This document shows positions 53,915 to 61,487 of a DNA stretch of 64,000 nucleotides, piece by piece. The DNA comes from Escherichia coli (lineage in GTDB: Bacteria; Pseudomonadota; Gammaproteobacteria; Enterobacterales; Enterobacteriaceae): NCBI RefSeq assembly GCF_051903065.1, contig NZ_CP178438.1. The stretch is one strand, 5' to 3'. How positions within the stretch are numbered: the stretch's first letter is position 1; each line of letters starts with the position of its first letter. The notes below the pieces were generated by a model. That model searched no databases and was not told where the DNA came from. It saw nothing but the letters and a program-made list of their open reading frames with translations. The position numbers and the translations under genes are program-made.

Positions 53915-54032
53915 GATTATCTTTCCTGTTTACATATAGTTAACGTCACACCTAGTTTATGCTAACTGTCAATAACACAGCAAACGCTATTTGCGCTTAA
54001 TCCGCAGACCACCGCGACAACAAGGAGTAAAG

Positions 54033-55701: not shown

Positions 55702-55991
55702 GATCGTCTCTGGTTCAGGAAGTATTACAGGCAGTGTTGTGCAAATTTTGCGGATTATCAAATCCTTTTCTTCAACGCTATGTCATCGATCTTGTATCAC
55801 TTTTTTGCCGGAAGTTGTTTGTATTTTTATTGATGTGCAGATATTAGAATTGTCGTAATGTTATATACATGGCGTATTTTATTCTTACTGGTTCTACACA
55901 TGTTAATCGCATCTGATTGATCAGTTCACCTTAATAAGTTTAATAAATCGTACTGCACATAGTACAGTACGATGGTGGCTATATAATTGAT

Positions 55992-56642
55992 TTACATGAA
56001 GAATGGCTTATCGCCATCAGTCCCGGGTTGATTGATGCCTATATTCTCACCAATGTGTTTCTCAGGTTTATCGATGATATCTGTAATTAATGCTGCGACA
56101 CTCTTACGTGATACGATCGTACCTTTGAATGGTTCATTGCGTGAGGTAAGCTCATAATCAATAATATCTTCATCCGTCAGCCAGGCAGGGCGAAGAATTG
56201 TATAATCCAGTCCAGAAGCCTCAATTGCATCCGCAGCCCTGCGGAATGGTTTTAGGGGCTCACCAATAACTGCATTATTCCATTCGCCAAATTTTCCTGG
56301 AACTTCATCATAAATGCCGAGGGAAAGAACAAAGATCAGACGTTTAACATCACAGGCTTTCATCGCAGCGATCACTGAATTTGCCTGAATATCTAAATCT
56401 TCCCCCGTAAGGTTGGCATACACAATATCCTGTCCCTGCATGGCCTGCTTCAGTGCTGCATGATTCAGTACATCCCCCATAATAATCTGGCTATTAGTTG
56501 GATAGGGTTTGTGTATTTTTGCTGGCTGACGAGCAAATAAAGTTTGTTTAATGGTTTGTTTATCTGCCAGTTGATTAATCACATGGCGGGCTATCTGACC
56601 GCCAGCACCAAGAATGAGTACTTTTTTCATAATATTTCTCAT
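55992..56642 (-). CDS. ymjC: NAD(P)-binding (NmrA/SDR-like) protein, apparently intact ymjC homolog
   Basis: 216-aa ORF with Rossmann motif ILGAGGQIARH. Confidence 0.7.
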   Translation of the reverse strand: MRNIMKKVLILGAGGQIARHVINQLADKQTIKQTLFARQPAKIHKPYPTNSQIIMGDVLNHAALKQAMQGQDIVYANLTGEDLDIQANSVIAAMKACDVKRLIFVLSLGIYDEVPGKFGEWNNAVIGEPLKPFRRAADAIEASGLDYTILRPAWLTDEDIIDYELTSRNEPFKGTIVSRKSVAALITDIIDKPEKHIGENIGINQPGTDGDKPFFM

Positions 56643-56647
56643 GAAAC

Positions 56648-57580
56648 TTATCCCAGATGGGTGTTGAAAAAAGGAATAACTTTTTCCAGCGCCTCCTGAA
56701 CTGCTTCCGGTTTGTCATACAGTTCATAATGTGAGAAATCGGGTAATGAAACTAACTGACGATCCTGCGAAACCATCGCCCGGCCATAGACTTCCAGTCC
56801 ATCACGATAAGCACCGAAGGCACCGACTTTTTCACCAACTACTACCATCACCGGCTGAGTCAGTAACACTTCAGTAAATGCGAAGGCATCCCAGGCCAGC
56901 GTTTTCTGTGCATGTGAGAACAACATTTTTGTCGCACCTCCCGGTTGTTGCCCGCGTGGTGTTTTATAGTAGTCAGTTGCTTCATAAACATCGCGTTCGG
57001 TCAGTCCATGGGCTTTTGCTGCATCCAGGCTGGCGGGAAGTAATTCGTTGATCTGTAATTCTCCACCACGAGCCTCTTTGGTTCGTTGCGACGCCATTGC
57101 ATTCAATGCGCCAATCGGATCGTAATTGCTGAAACCTTCCCGAAAAAGACGCCCGATATTAACACCCGTAATACTCACTACAGCTTTAATTCGTTTTTCT
57201 GTCAGCGCGGCATTAATGGCATAGCCCCTCCCCCCACACACACCCAGCACGCCAATGCGTTCAGCATCAACATATGGCAGAGTTACTGCATAATCGATAA
57301 CACGGCTAATATCCTCTACGCGCTGTGTCGGATCTTCTATCCAACGAGGCTCCCCACCAGATTCTCCCTGGAAATTGGCGTCATAAGCGAGAACGACATA
57401 GCCTTTTTCAGCCAATGCCTTGCCATAGATATTGCCAGACGTCTGCTCCTTACAACTGCCAAAAGGATGGACGCTGATAATCGCCGGATACTGTTTTGAC
57501 TCATCAAAATTTGGTGGAAACTGAATATTGGCAGCAATATGCCAGGCCATATCACTATTGCGGATTTGAATATGTTTCAT
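56648..57580 (-). CDS. Alpha/beta hydrolase (dienelactone-hydrolase-like, Cys nucleophile GVCGG)
   Basis: 310-aa ORF; paralog of the adjacent upstream gene. Confidence 0.75.
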   Translation of the reverse strand: MKHIQIRNSDMAWHIAANIQFPPNFDESKQYPAIISVHPFGSCKEQTSGNIYGKALAEKGYVVLAYDANFQGESGGEPRWIEDPTQRVEDISRVIDYAVTLPYVDAERIGVLGVCGGRGYAINAALTEKRIKAVVSITGVNIGRLFREGFSNYDPIGALNAMASQRTKEARGGELQINELLPASLDAAKAHGLTERDVYEATDYYKTPRGQQPGGATKMLFSHAQKTLAWDAFAFTEVLLTQPVMVVVGEKVGAFGAYRDGLEVYGRAMVSQDRQLVSLPDFSHYELYDKPEAVQEALEKVIPFFNTHLG

Positions 57581-58512
57581 TACAGAGTTTCCTCAAAGAA
57601 CGGAGCTAATACTGAAATTGCTTCAGCCACATAGGCTTTGCCGTCATAAAGATCCATATGGTTTGCGCCTTCAACAATGTGATAGCGTTTATCCTGGCTT
57701 GATGCCCGATCGTACAGGTCGTCACTCATCCATTTGCTCCCTGCCTGGCTGCCCGCCACAATCTGCATCGGCTGAGTCAGGTACACTTCCGCCATATGGT
57801 AAGCATCATAGGTAATAATCTGGTTAAGGCTGCGCAAAGTAGCGTAACCCGGTGCTGTTGGATACTGCGCACGAGGGGTGTGGTAATACTCCCAGGCCTG
57901 ACGCAGTTCTTCGTTCGGCGCATCGGCCTCCTTCATTGGAGCCAGTGGCATAATGGCGTATTCTTCGCTGCTAATATCGCTGGTTCGGGCGTTTGAGCCA
58001 GCTTCAATGTGTGGCAGAGCATCAATAGATTTCACATTGTTTTCCCAACCATTGCGGAACATCGAACCAATATTGACCGCACTAACGGTACCGATGGCCT
58101 TGATGCGGCGATCCTGAATTGCAGCATTGGCTGTATATCCTGCACCGGCACAAATTCCCATCGCACCAATTCGGGTATTGTCGACATAAGAAAGCGTTGT
58201 CAGGTAATCAATCACGGCACTGATGTCTTCAGTACGAATGTATGGGTTTTCTAACTGACGCGGCTCGCCGCCACTTTCACCCTGATAAGATGCGTCATAA
58301 GCAATAGTGACAAATCCCTTTTCCGCCAGTTTTTCGGCATAGGTCCCGGCCGTTTGTTCTTTAACGCCCCCACCTGGGTGAGATACCACAATTGCCGGAT
58401 ATTGACGGGTTTCATCAAATTTTGGAGGAAAATAGATCACTGCAGACAAAGAGATGGTTGGATTATTGCTGTTAGTGAAGCTGACTTTATTATTCATCAT
58501 TCCGTTCCTCAT
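57580..58512 (-). CDS. ycjY: Alpha/beta hydrolase (dienelactone-hydrolase-like, GICAG), ycjY-like
   Basis: 310-aa ORF; TAATG stop/start overlap with the downstream paralog. Confidence 0.7.
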   Translation of the reverse strand: MRNGMMNNKVSFTNSNNPTISLSAVIYFPPKFDETRQYPAIVVSHPGGGVKEQTAGTYAEKLAEKGFVTIAYDASYQGESGGEPRQLENPYIRTEDISAVIDYLTTLSYVDNTRIGAMGICAGAGYTANAAIQDRRIKAIGTVSAVNIGSMFRNGWENNVKSIDALPHIEAGSNARTSDISSEEYAIMPLAPMKEADAPNEELRQAWEYYHTPRAQYPTAPGYATLRSLNQIITYDAYHMAEVYLTQPMQIVAGSQAGSKWMSDDLYDRASSQDKRYHIVEGANHMDLYDGKAYVAEAISVLAPFFEETL

Positions 58513-58570
58513 GGAGTTGTTGGTTCGTTTTAACGGTTGGTGATATCACTATAGATATTGATCATTAAGT

Positions 58571-58615
58571 TGATTAGACCCAAAATCATGATTAGACCTA
58601 TCATTTAAATGATTA
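58571..58615. promoter_or_regulatory. pgrR divergent control region: direct repeat TGATTAGACC x2 plus palindrome ATCATTTAAATGAT (T-N11-A type)
   Basis: Read directly; sits between divergent hydrolase operon and pgrR. Confidence 0.5.
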
Positions 58616-58637
58616 ATAGATTGTATGGAGATACTGA

Positions 58638-59537
58638 ATGAAGCGTGAAGAGATCGCTGATCTGATGGCGTTTGTCGTCGTTGCAGAGGAGCGTAGCTTC
58701 ACTCGAGCAGCAGCCCGCCTGAGCATGGCGCAGTCAGCTTTAAGCCAGATAGTGCGCCGTATAGAAGAACGATTGGGATTGCGGCTTCTGACGCGAACTA
58801 CGCGCAGCGTTGTACCAACTGAAGCGGGCGAGCATCTTTTGTCTGTTCTTGGCCCTATGTTGCATGACATAGATTCTGCCCTGACATCCCTGAGCGATCT
58901 GCAGAACCGCCCATCCGGGACAATACGTATTACTACTGTAGAACATGCAGCAAAAACGATATTGTTACCAGCCATGCGCACATTCCTGAGATCGCATCCT
59001 GAAATTGATATTCAGCTCACCATTGATTATGGTTTGACCGATGTCGTTTCTGAACGTTTTGATGCAGGCGTCCGTCTGGGTGGGGAGATGGATAAAGATA
59101 TGATCGCCATTCGAATCGGGCCAGATATACCAATGGCTATTGTTGGCTCACCGGATTATTTTTCTCGCCGAAGTGTTCCAACGTCAGTGTCACAATTAAT
59201 AGATCATCAGGCAATTAATTTGTATCTTCCCACATCGGGTACAGCAAATCGCTGGAGATTAATACGCGGTGGACGTGAAGTTCGTGTTCGCATGGAAGGT
59301 CAGCTTTTACTGAATACGATAGACCTGATCATTGATGCTGCAATTGATGGGCATGGATTGGCGTATCTACCTTATGATCAGGTTGAGCGGGCTATTAAAG
59401 AAAAAAAACTGATACGTGTTTTGGATAAATTCACACCAGATTTACCCGGTTATCACCTGTACTATCCACACCGTCGACATGCTGGCTCGGCATTCTCATT
59501 ATTTATAGATAGGCTGAAGTATAAAGGTGCTGTTTAG
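58638..59537 (+). CDS. pgrR: LysR-family transcriptional regulator
   Basis: 299-aa ORF with N-terminal HTH (FTRAAARLSMAQSALSQ); recognised as PgrR/YcjZ. Confidence 0.85.
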   Translation: MKREEIADLMAFVVVAEERSFTRAAARLSMAQSALSQIVRRIEERLGLRLLTRTTRSVVPTEAGEHLLSVLGPMLHDIDSALTSLSDLQNRPSGTIRITTVEHAAKTILLPAMRTFLRSHPEIDIQLTIDYGLTDVVSERFDAGVRLGGEMDKDMIAIRIGPDIPMAIVGSPDYFSRRSVPTSVSQLIDHQAINLYLPTSGTANRWRLIRGGREVRVRMEGQLLLNTIDLIIDAAIDGHGLAYLPYDQVERAIKEKKLIRVLDKFTPDLPGYHLYYPHRRHAGSAFSLFIDRLKYKGAV

Positions 59538-59873
59538 CACTACTTGCTGATACATTAATTTAATTCTTCTCTTAACGTATTCTCAGTTCCTTTCAACGTT
59601 TTGGTTATTTTTTATTCTTCGTACAATGGCGACAGATGCTGATTATGATACCGAAAACTGGTTTGAACGTGTGAAGCCCGAACGTAGTGTTCGGTGTTCT
59701 ATGTGCTTTGCCGCATTTTGGCGTCTATTATTTACACTAAATATGATTTAATATATTGATACATAAAACATTTTATGCTTCCTGTGTCACTTTTTTGATG
59801 GAAGTTGTTTGCATTTCTTTAAGGCGAAACAAATAATTACGCATCAATTTTAATGTCGGTTAGAGGGAAACTT

Positions 59874-61487
59874 ATGAAGCACTCTGTTTCAGTCACGTGT
59901 TGTGCGCTGTTGGTCAGCAGCATTTCTCTTTCGTATGCTGCAGAAGTTCCGAGCGGCACAGTACTGGCAGAGAAGCAGGAGCTGGTGCGCCACATTAAAG
60001 ATGAGCCTGCGTCGCTGGATCCCGCTAAAGCCGTGGGCCTGCCAGAGATTCAGGTCATTCGCGATCTTTTTGAAGGACTGGTGAATCAGAACGAGAAAGG
60101 GGAGATTGTCCCCGGCGTTGCGACTCAGTGGAAAAGTAATGACAACCGTATCTGGACTTTTACCCTGCGCGATAACGCAAAATGGGCGGATGGCACACCG
60201 GTAACGGCGCAAGATTTTGTCTACAGCTGGCAGCGTCTGGTGGACCCGAAAACGCTATCGCCATTTGCATGGTTTGCCGCGCTGGCGGGAATCAACAACG
60301 CACAGGCGATTATTGATGGTAAAGCTACGCCTGACCAGCTTGGCGTCACCGCAGTTGATGCCCATACTTTGAAAATTCAGCTTGATAAACCGTTGCCGTG
60401 GTTTGTGAATTTAACCGCTAACTTTGCCTTCTTCCCGGTGCAAAAAGCCAACGTAGAAAGCGGTAAAGAGTGGACGAAACCCGGAAATCTGATCGGCAAT
60501 GGCGCTTATGTTCTTAAAGAGCGCGTAGTCAATGAAAAACTGGTCGTGGTACCGAATACCCATTATTGGGATAACGCCAAAACGGTACTGCAAAAAGTGA
60601 CCTTCCTGCCAATTAATCAGGAATCCGCAGCCACTAAGCGTTACCTCGCGGGGGATATTGATATCACCGAATCCTTCCCGAAAAATATGTATCAGAAGCT
60701 GTTGAAGGATATTCCGGGGCAGGTTTATACGCCGCCGCAGCTCGGGACCTATTATTATGCGTTTAACACGCAAAAAGGGCCGACGGCAGATCAGCGCGTT
60801 CGTCTGGCATTAAGTATGACGATAGATCGCCGCCTGATGACCGAAAAAGTATTAGGGACGGGCGAAAAGCCAGCGTGGCATTTTACACCAGATGTTACCG
60901 CCGGATTTACGCCGGAACCTTCGCCGTTTGAACAAATGAGTCAGGAAGAACTGAATGCGCAGGCAAAAACTTTGTTGAGCGCAGCTGGTTATGGTCCGCA
61001 AAAACCGCTGAAGCTGACGCTTTTGTATAACACTTCAGAAAACCATCAAAAAATTGCGATTGCTGTAGCATCGATGTGGAAAAAGAACCTTGGCGTAGAT
61101 GTTAAATTGCAAAATCAGGAATGGAAAACCTATATCGATAGCCGTAACACCGGCAATTTTGATGTTATCCGCGCCTCATGGGTGGGGGATTATAATGAAC
61201 CCTCCACTTTCCTGACATTATTAACGTCAACGCATTCAGGAAATATTTCACGCTTTAACAATCCGGCATACGACAAAGTTCTGGCCCAGGCATCGACGGA
61301 AAATACCGTTAAAGCGCGTAATGCCGATTACAACGCGGCAGAAAAAATCCTCATGGAGCAAGCACCGATTGCACCAATTTATCAATATACCAATGGACGA
61401 TTAATCAAGCCGTGGCTGAAAGGTTATCCCATTAATAACCCGGAAGATGTGGCGTACAGTCGGACTATGTATATTGTGAAGCATTGA
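59874..61487 (+). CDS. mppA: Periplasmic murein tripeptide-binding protein
   Basis: ORF 59853..61487; start set at MKHSVSVTCCALL... (537 aa) after an agagggaaa ribosome-binding site. Confidence 0.9.
   Translation: MKHSVSVTCCALLVSSISLSYAAEVPSGTVLAEKQELVRHIKDEPASLDPAKAVGLPEIQVIRDLFEGLVNQNEKGEIVPGVATQWKSNDNRIWTFTLRDNAKWADGTPVTAQDFVYSWQRLVDPKTLSPFAWFAALAGINNAQAIIDGKATPDQLGVTAVDAHTLKIQLDKPLPWFVNLTANFAFFPVQKANVESGKEWTKPGNLIGNGAYVLKERVVNEKLVVVPNTHYWDNAKTVLQKVTFLPINQESAATKRYLAGDIDITESFPKNMYQKLLKDIPGQVYTPPQLGTYYYAFNTQKGPTADQRVRLALSMTIDRRLMTEKVLGTGEKPAWHFTPDVTAGFTPEPSPFEQMSQEELNAQAKTLLSAAGYGPQKPLKLTLLYNTSENHQKIAIAVASMWKKNLGVDVKLQNQEWKTYIDSRNTGNFDVIRASWVGDYNEPSTFLTLLTSTHSGNISRFNNPAYDKVLAQASTENTVKARNADYNAAEKILMEQAPIAPIYQYTNGRLIKPWLKGYPINNPEDVAYSRTMYIVKH

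Follow-up and report, generated by a model that had tools for sequence, protein, structure and literature searches.

What recognizes the palindrome and the direct repeat that lie between the LysR-type regulator gene pgrR (ycjZ) of Escherichia coli and the divergent hydrolase gene ycjY? An earlier note on this DNA took them for a PgrR operator of the T-N11-A type, controlling pgrR and the divergent hydrolase, ymjC and mpaA genes. We analysed the whole 64,000-nucleotide stretch of DNA that contains them (the window, whose positions are used throughout and become NC_000913.3 coordinates on addition of 1,333,353). We conclude that the block at 58556-58617 is very probably the operator of PgrR, a LysR-type regulator (LTTR), set within two back-to-back promoters.

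Binding of PgrR to this promoter and its autorepression have already been published, and what we present is a refinement of that knowledge to the level of single bases, not a discovery. According to the accounts of Shimada 2013 in PMC5934670 and PMC4797297, gSELEX places PgrR on the ycjY/ycjZ spacer and assigns to its regulon ycjY-ymjDC-mpaA, ycjG and ycjXF-tyrR; the published reports on K-12 PgrR also include repression of ycjY-ymjDC-mpaA. In DAP-seq, PgrR reaches a fold value of 5632 at the pgrR promoter, comparable to the 4413 of LacI at lacZYA (PMC10505187, Supplementary Data 6). The same study reports by PPTP-seq that pgrR knock-down raises the activity of the pgrR promoter (log2 +0.97), confirms negative autoregulation in a strain with titratable PgrR, and finds a weak change of the ycjY promoter under pgrR knock-down that was not called significant (log2 +0.60, +0.28 and +0.34). 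A base-level layout of the site and its conservation outside Escherichia are not described in the texts cited here, and some of this may be contained in the 2013 paper itself.

The spacer measures 137 bp and is flanked by pgrR on the plus strand and ycjY on the minus strand, the place between a LysR gene and its divergent target where an LTTR operator is expected. It differs from that of K-12 MG1655 at two positions, both outside the conserved block, and the block itself is identical; the K-12 literature therefore applies to the window. A 351-bp segment containing the site matches E. coli ATCC 8739 at 100% identity and is found in 5226 of 5426 complete E. coli genomes, in which the flanking genes are annotated as pgrR and ycjY, and the 70 bp at 58548-58617 are 100% identical in 4476 of 5220 E. 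coli genomes. An alternative start of the ycjY reading frame is possible at 58512. The SDR gene, which is full length in the window (Table 1), has only the ymjC/ymjD remnants as its K-12 counterpart, and all four genes from pgrR to the SDR gene are retained in 1269 of the 5426 complete genomes.

Both direct reading and a repeat finder bear out the exact 10-mer TGATTAGACC, present in two copies whose starts are 18 bp apart. The 17-mer TATCATTTAAATGATTA, which the earlier note called a near-perfect palindrome, does stand at 58599-58615, but it is not the symmetric unit. That unit is the perfect 14-bp dyad ATCATTTAAATGAT, centred between 58606 and 58607, and the T...TA flanks are unpaired. The T-N11-A label proved to be wrong. 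The dyad is of even length and a symmetric T-N11-A is therefore impossible; in a scan of each T-N9-12-A in the 137-bp spacer, T58601-N10-A58612 gives seven of eight complementary pairs, whereas the best T-N11-A gives four of eight. The site thus falls outside a strict T-N11-A definition and inside the broader definition of an LTTR box, since PMC8407307 documents T-N10-A and T-N9-A boxes among other members of the LysR family.

Sites of related geometry lie upstream of this dyad. The centre of the second dyad, at 58561-58574, the better formed of the candidate ABS dyads, is 39 bp from that of the 14-mer, about 3 bp out of helical phase, and its left arm is variable, reading ATTA in Citrobacter and being lost in alphaproteobacterial copies of the locus. 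The weak site at 58579-58592 has its centre 21 bp, or two helical turns, from the same point. Each copy of TGATTAGACC supplies the strong TGAT half of one of these two candidate dyads, and the repeats themselves, 18 bp apart, have a geometry ill-suited to one symmetric dimer. The palindrome at 58540-58549 is conserved in some enterics only.

Table 1. Features of the pgrR/ycjY spacer and its surroundings in the window
Feature	Position	Strand	Sequence or motif	Remark
Perfect 14-bp dyad	58600-58613		ATCATTTAAATGAT, ATCA-N6-TGAT	Proposed PgrR recognition-binding site (RBS); NC_000913.3 1391953-1391966
Extended conserved RBS block	58599-58617		TATCATTTAAATGATTAAT	0.99 mean identity
Direct-repeat copy 1	58571-58580	+	TGATTAGACC	Proposed activation-site (ABS) region; overlaps predicted pgrR -35
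Direct-repeat copy 2	58589-58598	+	TGATTAGACC	Within pgrR promoter spacer; -48 to -57 of predicted ycjY promoter
Second dyad	58561-58574		ATCATTAAGTTGAT, ATCA-N6-TGAT	RBS-like geometry; candidate distal ABS subsite
Weak dyad-like site	58579-58592		CCCAAAATCATGAT, 6/8 of ATCA-N6-TGAT	Candidate proximal ABS subsite, putative
10-bp perfect palindrome	58540-58549		GTGATATCAC, GTGAT/ATCAC half-sites	At predicted ycjY +1
Predicted pgrR -35	58575-58580	+	TAGACC	Consensus scan; within repeat copy 1
Predicted pgrR -10	58599-58604	+	TATCAT	18-nt spacer from -35; left dyad arm
Predicted -10 of ycjY/hydrolase operon	58548-58553	-	TATAGT	Predicted start near 58541
Non-conserved pgrR leader	58618-58637	+	GGAG (58627-30)	Enteric-specific insertion of ~22 nt
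mpaA	54973-55701/55761	-
Hairpin	55947-55973	-	12-nt arms	Just 3' of SDR stop codon, within cassette; possible operon end
SDR gene	55992-56642	-		Full length, NAD(P)H-binding, 216 aa
Second alpha/beta hydrolase gene	56648-57580	-		~40% identical to YcjY; absent from K-12
ycjY	57580-58500	-		Alpha/beta hydrolase; RefSeq start equivalent to 58500
pgrR (ycjZ)	58638-59537	+		LysR-type regulator, 299 aa; HTH_1 and LysR_substrate domains
mppA	59853-61487	+

The repeat and the palindrome are real, non-random features. When the spacer was shuffled 20,000 times with its dinucleotide composition preserved, 1.4% of the shuffles contained a palindrome of 14 bp or longer, 1.5% a direct repeat of 10 bp or longer and 0.03% the two jointly. 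The tetramers TGAT and ATCA occur nine times in the spacer, versus 1.7 expected from mononucleotide and 3.8 from dinucleotide composition, a count reached by 36 of the 20,000 dinucleotide shuffles. In the 64-kb window as a whole, TGATTAGACC has no further occurrence beyond its two spacer copies, perfect palindromes of at least 14 bp number four, variants of the palindrome occur at chance-level frequency, and the remaining matches to ATCA-N6-TGAT all lie in coding DNA. A search for a comparable operator motif upstream of ycjG (53915-54032) and ycjX, the other reported PgrR targets in the window, gave nothing convincing. Two other leads were set aside: a second spot dense in TGAT/ATCA, at 18600-18790, which is GC-rich, coding-like sequence, and an RNA element or attenuator, for which there was no Rfam match at E <= 1 and no significant fold (z-score -0.66 versus shuffled controls).

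A scan with the PgrR protein, taking one genome per species, recovered orthologous enteric loci in Citrobacter, Kluyvera, Pseudocitrobacter, Shimwellia, several Serratia and MAGs, with PgrR 84-88% identical to that of E. coli, and in one more distant ortholog, L010, with PgrR 58% identical. The four-fold degenerate sites in pgrR and ycjY are essentially saturated, with 31-43% identity to E. coli. The 14-bp dyad is 99% identical across 9 non-Escherichia enteric lineages, and 58599-58617 likewise has an identity of 0.99 to E. coli. Repeat copy 1 retains 98% in the other enterics and 58556-58617 overall 0.89, versus 0.57 in the ycjY leader and 0.21 in the 20 nt that separate the palindrome from the pgrR ATG (58618-58637). 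The block is thus a sharp-edged phylogenetic footprint of about 62 bp, 58556-58617, and its length agrees with the contact region of about 50-60 bp expected for an LTTR, the span being one of conservation and not a nuclease footprint. Copy 2 has an identity of 0.78 and reads consistently TGATTGGACT in the other enteric genera. Conservation across enterics, which the earlier note had named as a check, accordingly holds for the block (89-99% identical where four-fold sites are saturated) but not for the exact direct repeat, which is Escherichia-specific. In the alphaproteobacterial copies and L010, the LysR ATG lies at the columns equivalent to 58616-18.

The same arrangement is found far outside the enterics. 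A LysR/hydrolase/hydrolase/SDR cassette is carried on plasmids of Rhizobium tropici, Agrobacterium fabrum and Kozakia baliensis, with PgrR 70-74% identical, and also on Klebsiella conjugative plasmids and an Agrobacterium pusense plasmid. Over the Rhizobium, Agrobacterium and Kozakia cassettes, PgrR is 61-74% identical, and integrases or IS elements usually adjoin the plasmid copies. All other hosts share with E. coli a segment of homology, about 55921 to 59538, bounded by the hairpin that follows the SDR stop and by the pgrR stop codon; mpaA, ycjG and mppA fall outside it. With the dyad as anchor, about 80 columns can be aligned with zero gaps across the spacers of E. coli, six other enteric lineages and three alphaproteobacterial plasmids. 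Invariant in these ten lineages are A58548, T58550, TAG58552-54, ATT58564-66, GATTAGA(C) at 58572-79, AAT58584-86, TT.G.C at 58592-97, TATCA.T at 58599-605 and TGAT at 58610-13; most of these columns have changed in the L010 spacer, which is part of the same alignment.

Within this alignment, the core GATTAGAC of repeat copy 1 is nearly invariant from Gamma to Alpha lineages, and copy 2 is more degenerate in the latter (TTRGNCY). The dyad arms ATCAY and RTGAT are retained from Gamma to Alpha, the central four nucleotides vary (TTAA, TGAA, TGAG, TGGA), and the fifth arm position co-varies from T:A to C:G, so that ATCAT...ATGAT becomes ATCAC...GTGAT in A. fabrum, Kozakia and A. pusense. Fixed or co-varying arms around a variable centre are the pattern expected if two half-sites are read by a symmetric dimer. 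In A. pusense, whose PgrR is 61% identical, the RBS dyad is retained and GATTAGAC is replaced by a second perfect dyad, CTATCAT-TCC-ATGATAG, which is built from RBS half-sites and has its centre 31.5 bp upstream, at the position of E. coli repeat copy 1.

In the lineages with the E. coli dyad, the HTH region of PgrR is 89-93% identical over the first 71 residues and the segment AQSALSQIVRR is unchanged, and the 58%-identical L010 ortholog has both a changed HTH region and a diverged operator. The conserved block accompanies pgrR and ycjY at every occurrence of these genes. Paralogous LysR genes with other partner genes (46-55% identical) were not used to define the PgrR site because their dyads differ. 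They too keep GATTAGA and TATnnT upstream at equal spacing, as well as CCTAT, so that some of the conservation may stem from the -35 and -10 of the regulator gene itself, and copy 1 may owe its conservation mainly to a role as pgrR -35. As copy 1 coincides with this predicted -35, it need not be purely an operator element.

How the block relates to the promoters of the two genes can be read from consensus matches (Table 1). The hexamers predicted for pgrR, TAGACC and TATCAT, are independently listed for this gene by Shimada et al. 2014 (PMC3946193), who also report an RpoD-holoenzyme SELEX peak in the ycjY/pgrR spacer, and TAGACC-18-TATCAT is conserved in all lineages. From a predicted start near 58611, the dyad would span about -11 to +3 and so cover the predicted pgrR -10 and +1, as an autorepressor site should; autorepression itself is experimental (PMC10505187).

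On the minus strand, the predicted ycjY -10 takes the forms TATAGT, TAGATT and TACCAT among Gamma and Alpha copies, its T-12, A-11 and T-7 being invariant in the ten lineages, in which it also keeps a fixed, indel-free distance from the dyad; in L010, TAGATT is shifted by one base. The -35 that would pair with this -10 fits poorly, at 2-3 of 6 positions. The ycjY promoter given in PMC3946193, ATGATA-19-TCTAAT, appears less likely, as its spacer, by our count, is 20 nt and its -10 is without the -11 A, and TATAGT is preferred because TAnnnT at 58553-48 is invariant. Counted from a start near 58541, copy 1 would occupy -30 to -39 and copy 2 -48 to -57, and the dyad would be centred at about -65.5; the placement near -65 thus depends on a predicted minus-strand -10 with a poor -35. 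The start map of Kim 2012 has none in the spacer, its only entries for this locus being the start of mpaA and one within pgrR on the antisense strand, and the start supplements of ROSE, Adams 2021 and Cappable-seq have no entry for ycjY/pgrR or their coordinates. Published holoenzyme SELEX data show strong signals of RpoE and RpoH at the spacer; a sigma-E promoter of the form GGAACTT-N16-TCAAA was not seen by eye on either of its strands.

From this layout we infer the bases that PgrR contacts, both transcription starts, the roles of the repeat copies and the response to an effector. The dyad would be the high-affinity RBS, bound by one DNA-binding-domain dimer of PgrR, and PgrR seated there would occlude RNA polymerase at the pgrR -10 and start, giving self-repression, a step that has functional support in the published autoregulation data. 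For the divergent ycjY-hydrolase-SDR operon, the same dyad would sit about 65 bp upstream of where transcription is predicted to begin. The region 58561-58598, with both copies of TGATTAGACC, would form a lower-affinity ABS region interleaved with the two -35 regions, and a second dimer of the PgrR oligomer may contact it over the weak ycjY -35. The ycjY operon would then stay off until an effector alters this upstream PgrR contact.

Might the block be conserved solely for the -35 and -10 elements of a pair of divergent sigma-70 promoters that overlap, with the palindrome and repeats as by-products that PgrR does not contact? The predicted pgrR -35 and -10 do fall in copy 1 and the left dyad arm, the minus-strand TATAGT is a good -10, RpoD holoenzyme selects the spacer (PMC3946193), and GATTAGA and CCTAT are retained upstream of paralogous LysR genes. 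We nevertheless regard this as unlikely, because the right dyad arm AAATGATTAAT (58607-17), downstream of the -10 and without a promoter role, is 99% conserved and co-varies with the left arm, copy 2 is 78% conserved despite lying inside the promoter spacer, A. pusense swaps the -35 region for a second dyad of the same half-sites, and published work has PgrR binding this promoter very strongly in vitro and repressing it. That the dyad and repeats serve another protein (H-NS, Fis, IHF, a Fur-like or other regulator) and PgrR sits elsewhere in the spacer is very improbable: the block is held in exact register on plasmids in Alphaproteobacteria, whose global regulators differ, PgrR is the only regulator encoded with it, near-identical PgrR HTH regions go with the same dyad as the L010 HTH changes go with a diverged operator, and the spacer offers no further conserved candidate. 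These points weigh against the AT-richness of the spacer (33% GC), the PPTP-seq data (PMC10505187), in which hns knock-down affects the ycjY promoter and several other knock-downs affect the pgrR promoter, and the strong RpoE and RpoH signals mentioned above.

Chance in AT-rich intergenic DNA would explain either feature alone in about 1.5% of shuffled spacers, and further palindromes of 12-14 bp are present in the window; the two features jointly are far rarer, and the block is near-invariant where synonymous sites are saturated and aligns without gaps from Gamma to Alpha. The conservation data therefore effectively refute this explanation, to which we assign a negligible probability. The remaining alternative keeps PgrR as the binding protein and changes the assembly: a candidate higher-order complex, such as a CrgA-like octamer or a pair of tetramers, would engage many TGAT/ATCA half-sites over 58540-58613, GTGATATCAC included. 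AphB and CrgA, of which the latter is an octamer, are among the closest solved relatives, and the nine tetramers within about 75 bp, with three ATCA-Nx-TGAT arrangements and the palindrome at 58540-49, speak for such a complex. Deep conservation, however, is limited to the RBS, GATTAGAC and a few other columns, and most of the extra tetramers, those of 58540-49 among them, are confined to enterics, which makes the larger assembly quite unlikely.

The reading of the block as a PgrR operator for pgrR and ycjY thus stands, on the footprint, on co-inheritance with both genes and on the published gSELEX, DAP-seq and autorepression data. Its extension to mpaA, also part of the earlier note, is doubtful: this gene is not part of the conserved cassette, it has a mapped start of its own, which the Kim 2012 supplement puts at the equivalent of window 55784, and the SDR gene is followed by the hairpin with 12-nt arms. 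A consensus scan did not call this hairpin a terminator.

What, then, is PgrR for? Together with the two hydrolase genes, the SDR gene and the operator, pgrR is a mobile cassette that landed between two murein-peptide genes. The cassette operator, GATTAGAC ... TATCAY-N4-RTGAT, is in unchanged register from alphaproteobacterial plasmids to enterobacterial chromosomes. The operator and four genes move independently of mpaA, mppA and ycjG, and the direct tie of PgrR to murein recycling is therefore questioned. It is possible, and we put it forward tentatively, that PgrR is the dedicated sensor of an ancient mobile 3.6-kb cassette and not primarily a regulator of peptidoglycan recycling, the Escherichia copy having landed at mpaA/mppA and since decayed in most strains, K-12 included. 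If so, the reported effect on mpaA would be read-through or secondary, and PgrR would respond to a compound that the hydrolase/SDR pathway consumes or makes, such as a lactone or ester. Both hydrolases show a weak, UilS-lactonase-like similarity. The co-movement of the cassette points to where the PgrR effector might be sought.

Several known systems offer a comparison. The BenM/CatM operators at benA and catB of Acinetobacter baylyi have sites 1-3, of the form ATAC-N7-GTAT. Like them, the PgrR region would combine a perfect dyad (58600-13) with two weaker copies of like geometry (58579-92 and 58561-74), and the spacing of 21 bp between the RBS and the proximal copy is shared; the half-site and the spacing within the dyad differ, as does the distance to the distal site, 39 bp for PgrR versus about 52 bp. 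CrgA, an octamer, acts in a divergent promoter and autorepresses, and the reported sites of CrgA and AphB are of the T-N11-A type. These two proteins are the closest solved homologues of PgrR, AphB from Vibrio cholerae (3szp, 3t1b, E = 2e-30) and CrgA from Neisseria meningitidis (3hhg, E = 1e-29), with low sequence identity to it.

In the general LTTR layout, an RBS near -65 and an ABS near -35 are contacted over 50-60 bp (PMC8407307). The PgrR site, functionally an ordinary operator of this family, resembles it in its divergent promoter, its one strong dyad with weaker upstream sites, its span of about 60 bp, the predicted -65 placement and an RBS that overlaps the regulator's own promoter, with documented autorepression. 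It differs in that the dyad is a 14-bp, even-length T-N10-A element with half-sites 10 bp apart in place of 11, and in that the ABS region consists of direct repeats 18 bp apart, without a clear second dyad. The K-12 PgrR site of Shimada, Yamazaki and Ishihama (2013, Genes Cells 18:123) coincides with ours, the block being identical, and in the accounts of that work its resolution is that of the promoter. Our analysis gives it a concrete base-level form: a T-N10-A dyad at K-12 1391953-66, correcting the T-N11-A label, together with two TGATTAGACC elements and predicted starts for both genes.

The cassette spans 3.6 kb (window 55921-59538) and comprises pgrR, ycjY, a second hydrolase gene and the SDR gene. 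Homology between E. coli and other copies of the cassette (loci L002-L013, L017-L020 and L027 compared) stops exactly at the ends of the SDR and pgrR genes. Other enterobacterial chromosomes hold the cassette without mpaA, mppA or ycjG, as do conjugative plasmids of Klebsiella. On plasmids of Rhizobium, Agrobacterium and Kozakia, where it again comes without these three genes, it adjoins integrases, IS21 or ISNCY. Within E. coli, only 1,269 of the 5,426 complete genomes have the full cassette, the window among them; the rest either lack the second hydrolase or retain ymjC/ymjD remnants alone, the latter being the state of K-12 and ATCC 8739.

Features of the cassette and its spacer, in window coordinates
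Feature	Position	Strand	Description
Hydrolase/SDR part of the cassette	55992-57580		full cassette codes for an SDR protein of 216 aa plus two hydrolases
Hairpin	55947-55973	-	12-nt arms, 92% complementary, 3-nt loop; directly 3′ of the SDR stop codon
Perfect 10-bp palindrome GTGATATCAC	58540-58549		at the predicted ycjY +1

The hairpin behind the SDR gene may form the end of the cassette operon ahead of mpaA. The tail that follows it is weakly T-rich, and a consensus terminator scan called no terminator at this position. A transcription start for mpaA was mapped by Kim et al. 2012 at NC_000913.2 position 1388705 (window 55784, - strand). It falls outside the cassette, and the long mpaA open reading frame begins 23 nt downstream of it, so mpaA has a promoter of its own. 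The same study reports two starts within the pgrR coding region: an antisense start at 1390556 (window about 59179, -), attributed to ycjY with a leader of 667 nt, and a sense start at 1390762 (window about 59385, +), assigned to mppA.

In the spacer between ycjY and pgrR (58501-58637), Shimada et al. 2017 found strong holoenzyme SELEX peaks for RpoE (17.2) and RpoH (4.4); a sigma-E-type promoter motif was not seen in this interval. On the ycjY side, the half-sites of GTGATATCAC, GTGAT and ATCAC, are those of the alpha-proteobacterial dyads, and the palindrome is kept in some enterics only. On the pgrR side, the LysR ATG of the alpha-proteobacterial copies and of the 58%-identical ortholog lies 3-5 nt past the dyad (the proposed PgrR recognition palindrome), in the columns of 58616-58618, at which E. 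coli reads ATA. The enterics have about 22 nt of unconserved sequence inserted here (58616-58637), which provides a leader along with a GGAG Shine-Dalgarno sequence.

Variant arrangements occur in relatives. An ortholog on an Agrobacterium pusense plasmid (L027, 2383-2501) retains the dyad as ATCAC-TGAG-GTGAT, and GATTAGAC gives way to another perfect dyad, CTATCAT-TCC-ATGATAG, whose centre lies 31.5 bp, or three helical turns, upstream. Paralogous LysR genes, about 53% identical and partnered with genes for an aldo/keto reductase or an alcohol dehydrogenase, are found on Pararhizobium, Tistrella and Ensifer plasmids (L021, L022 and L023). Upstream of their ATG, CGATTAGAT and CCTAT are retained at an unchanged 25-nt spacing, and the downstream dyad differs.

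Finally, both hydrolases (57583-58500 and 56651-57580) weakly resemble the UilS family; the matches, with E = 6e-25 and 9e-21, respectively, are sub-threshold and far below the curated cut-off. UilS-family proteins are quorum-quenching N-acyl-homoserine lactonases, and this likeness in sequence is a lead to the substrate of the cassette, short of an assignment.
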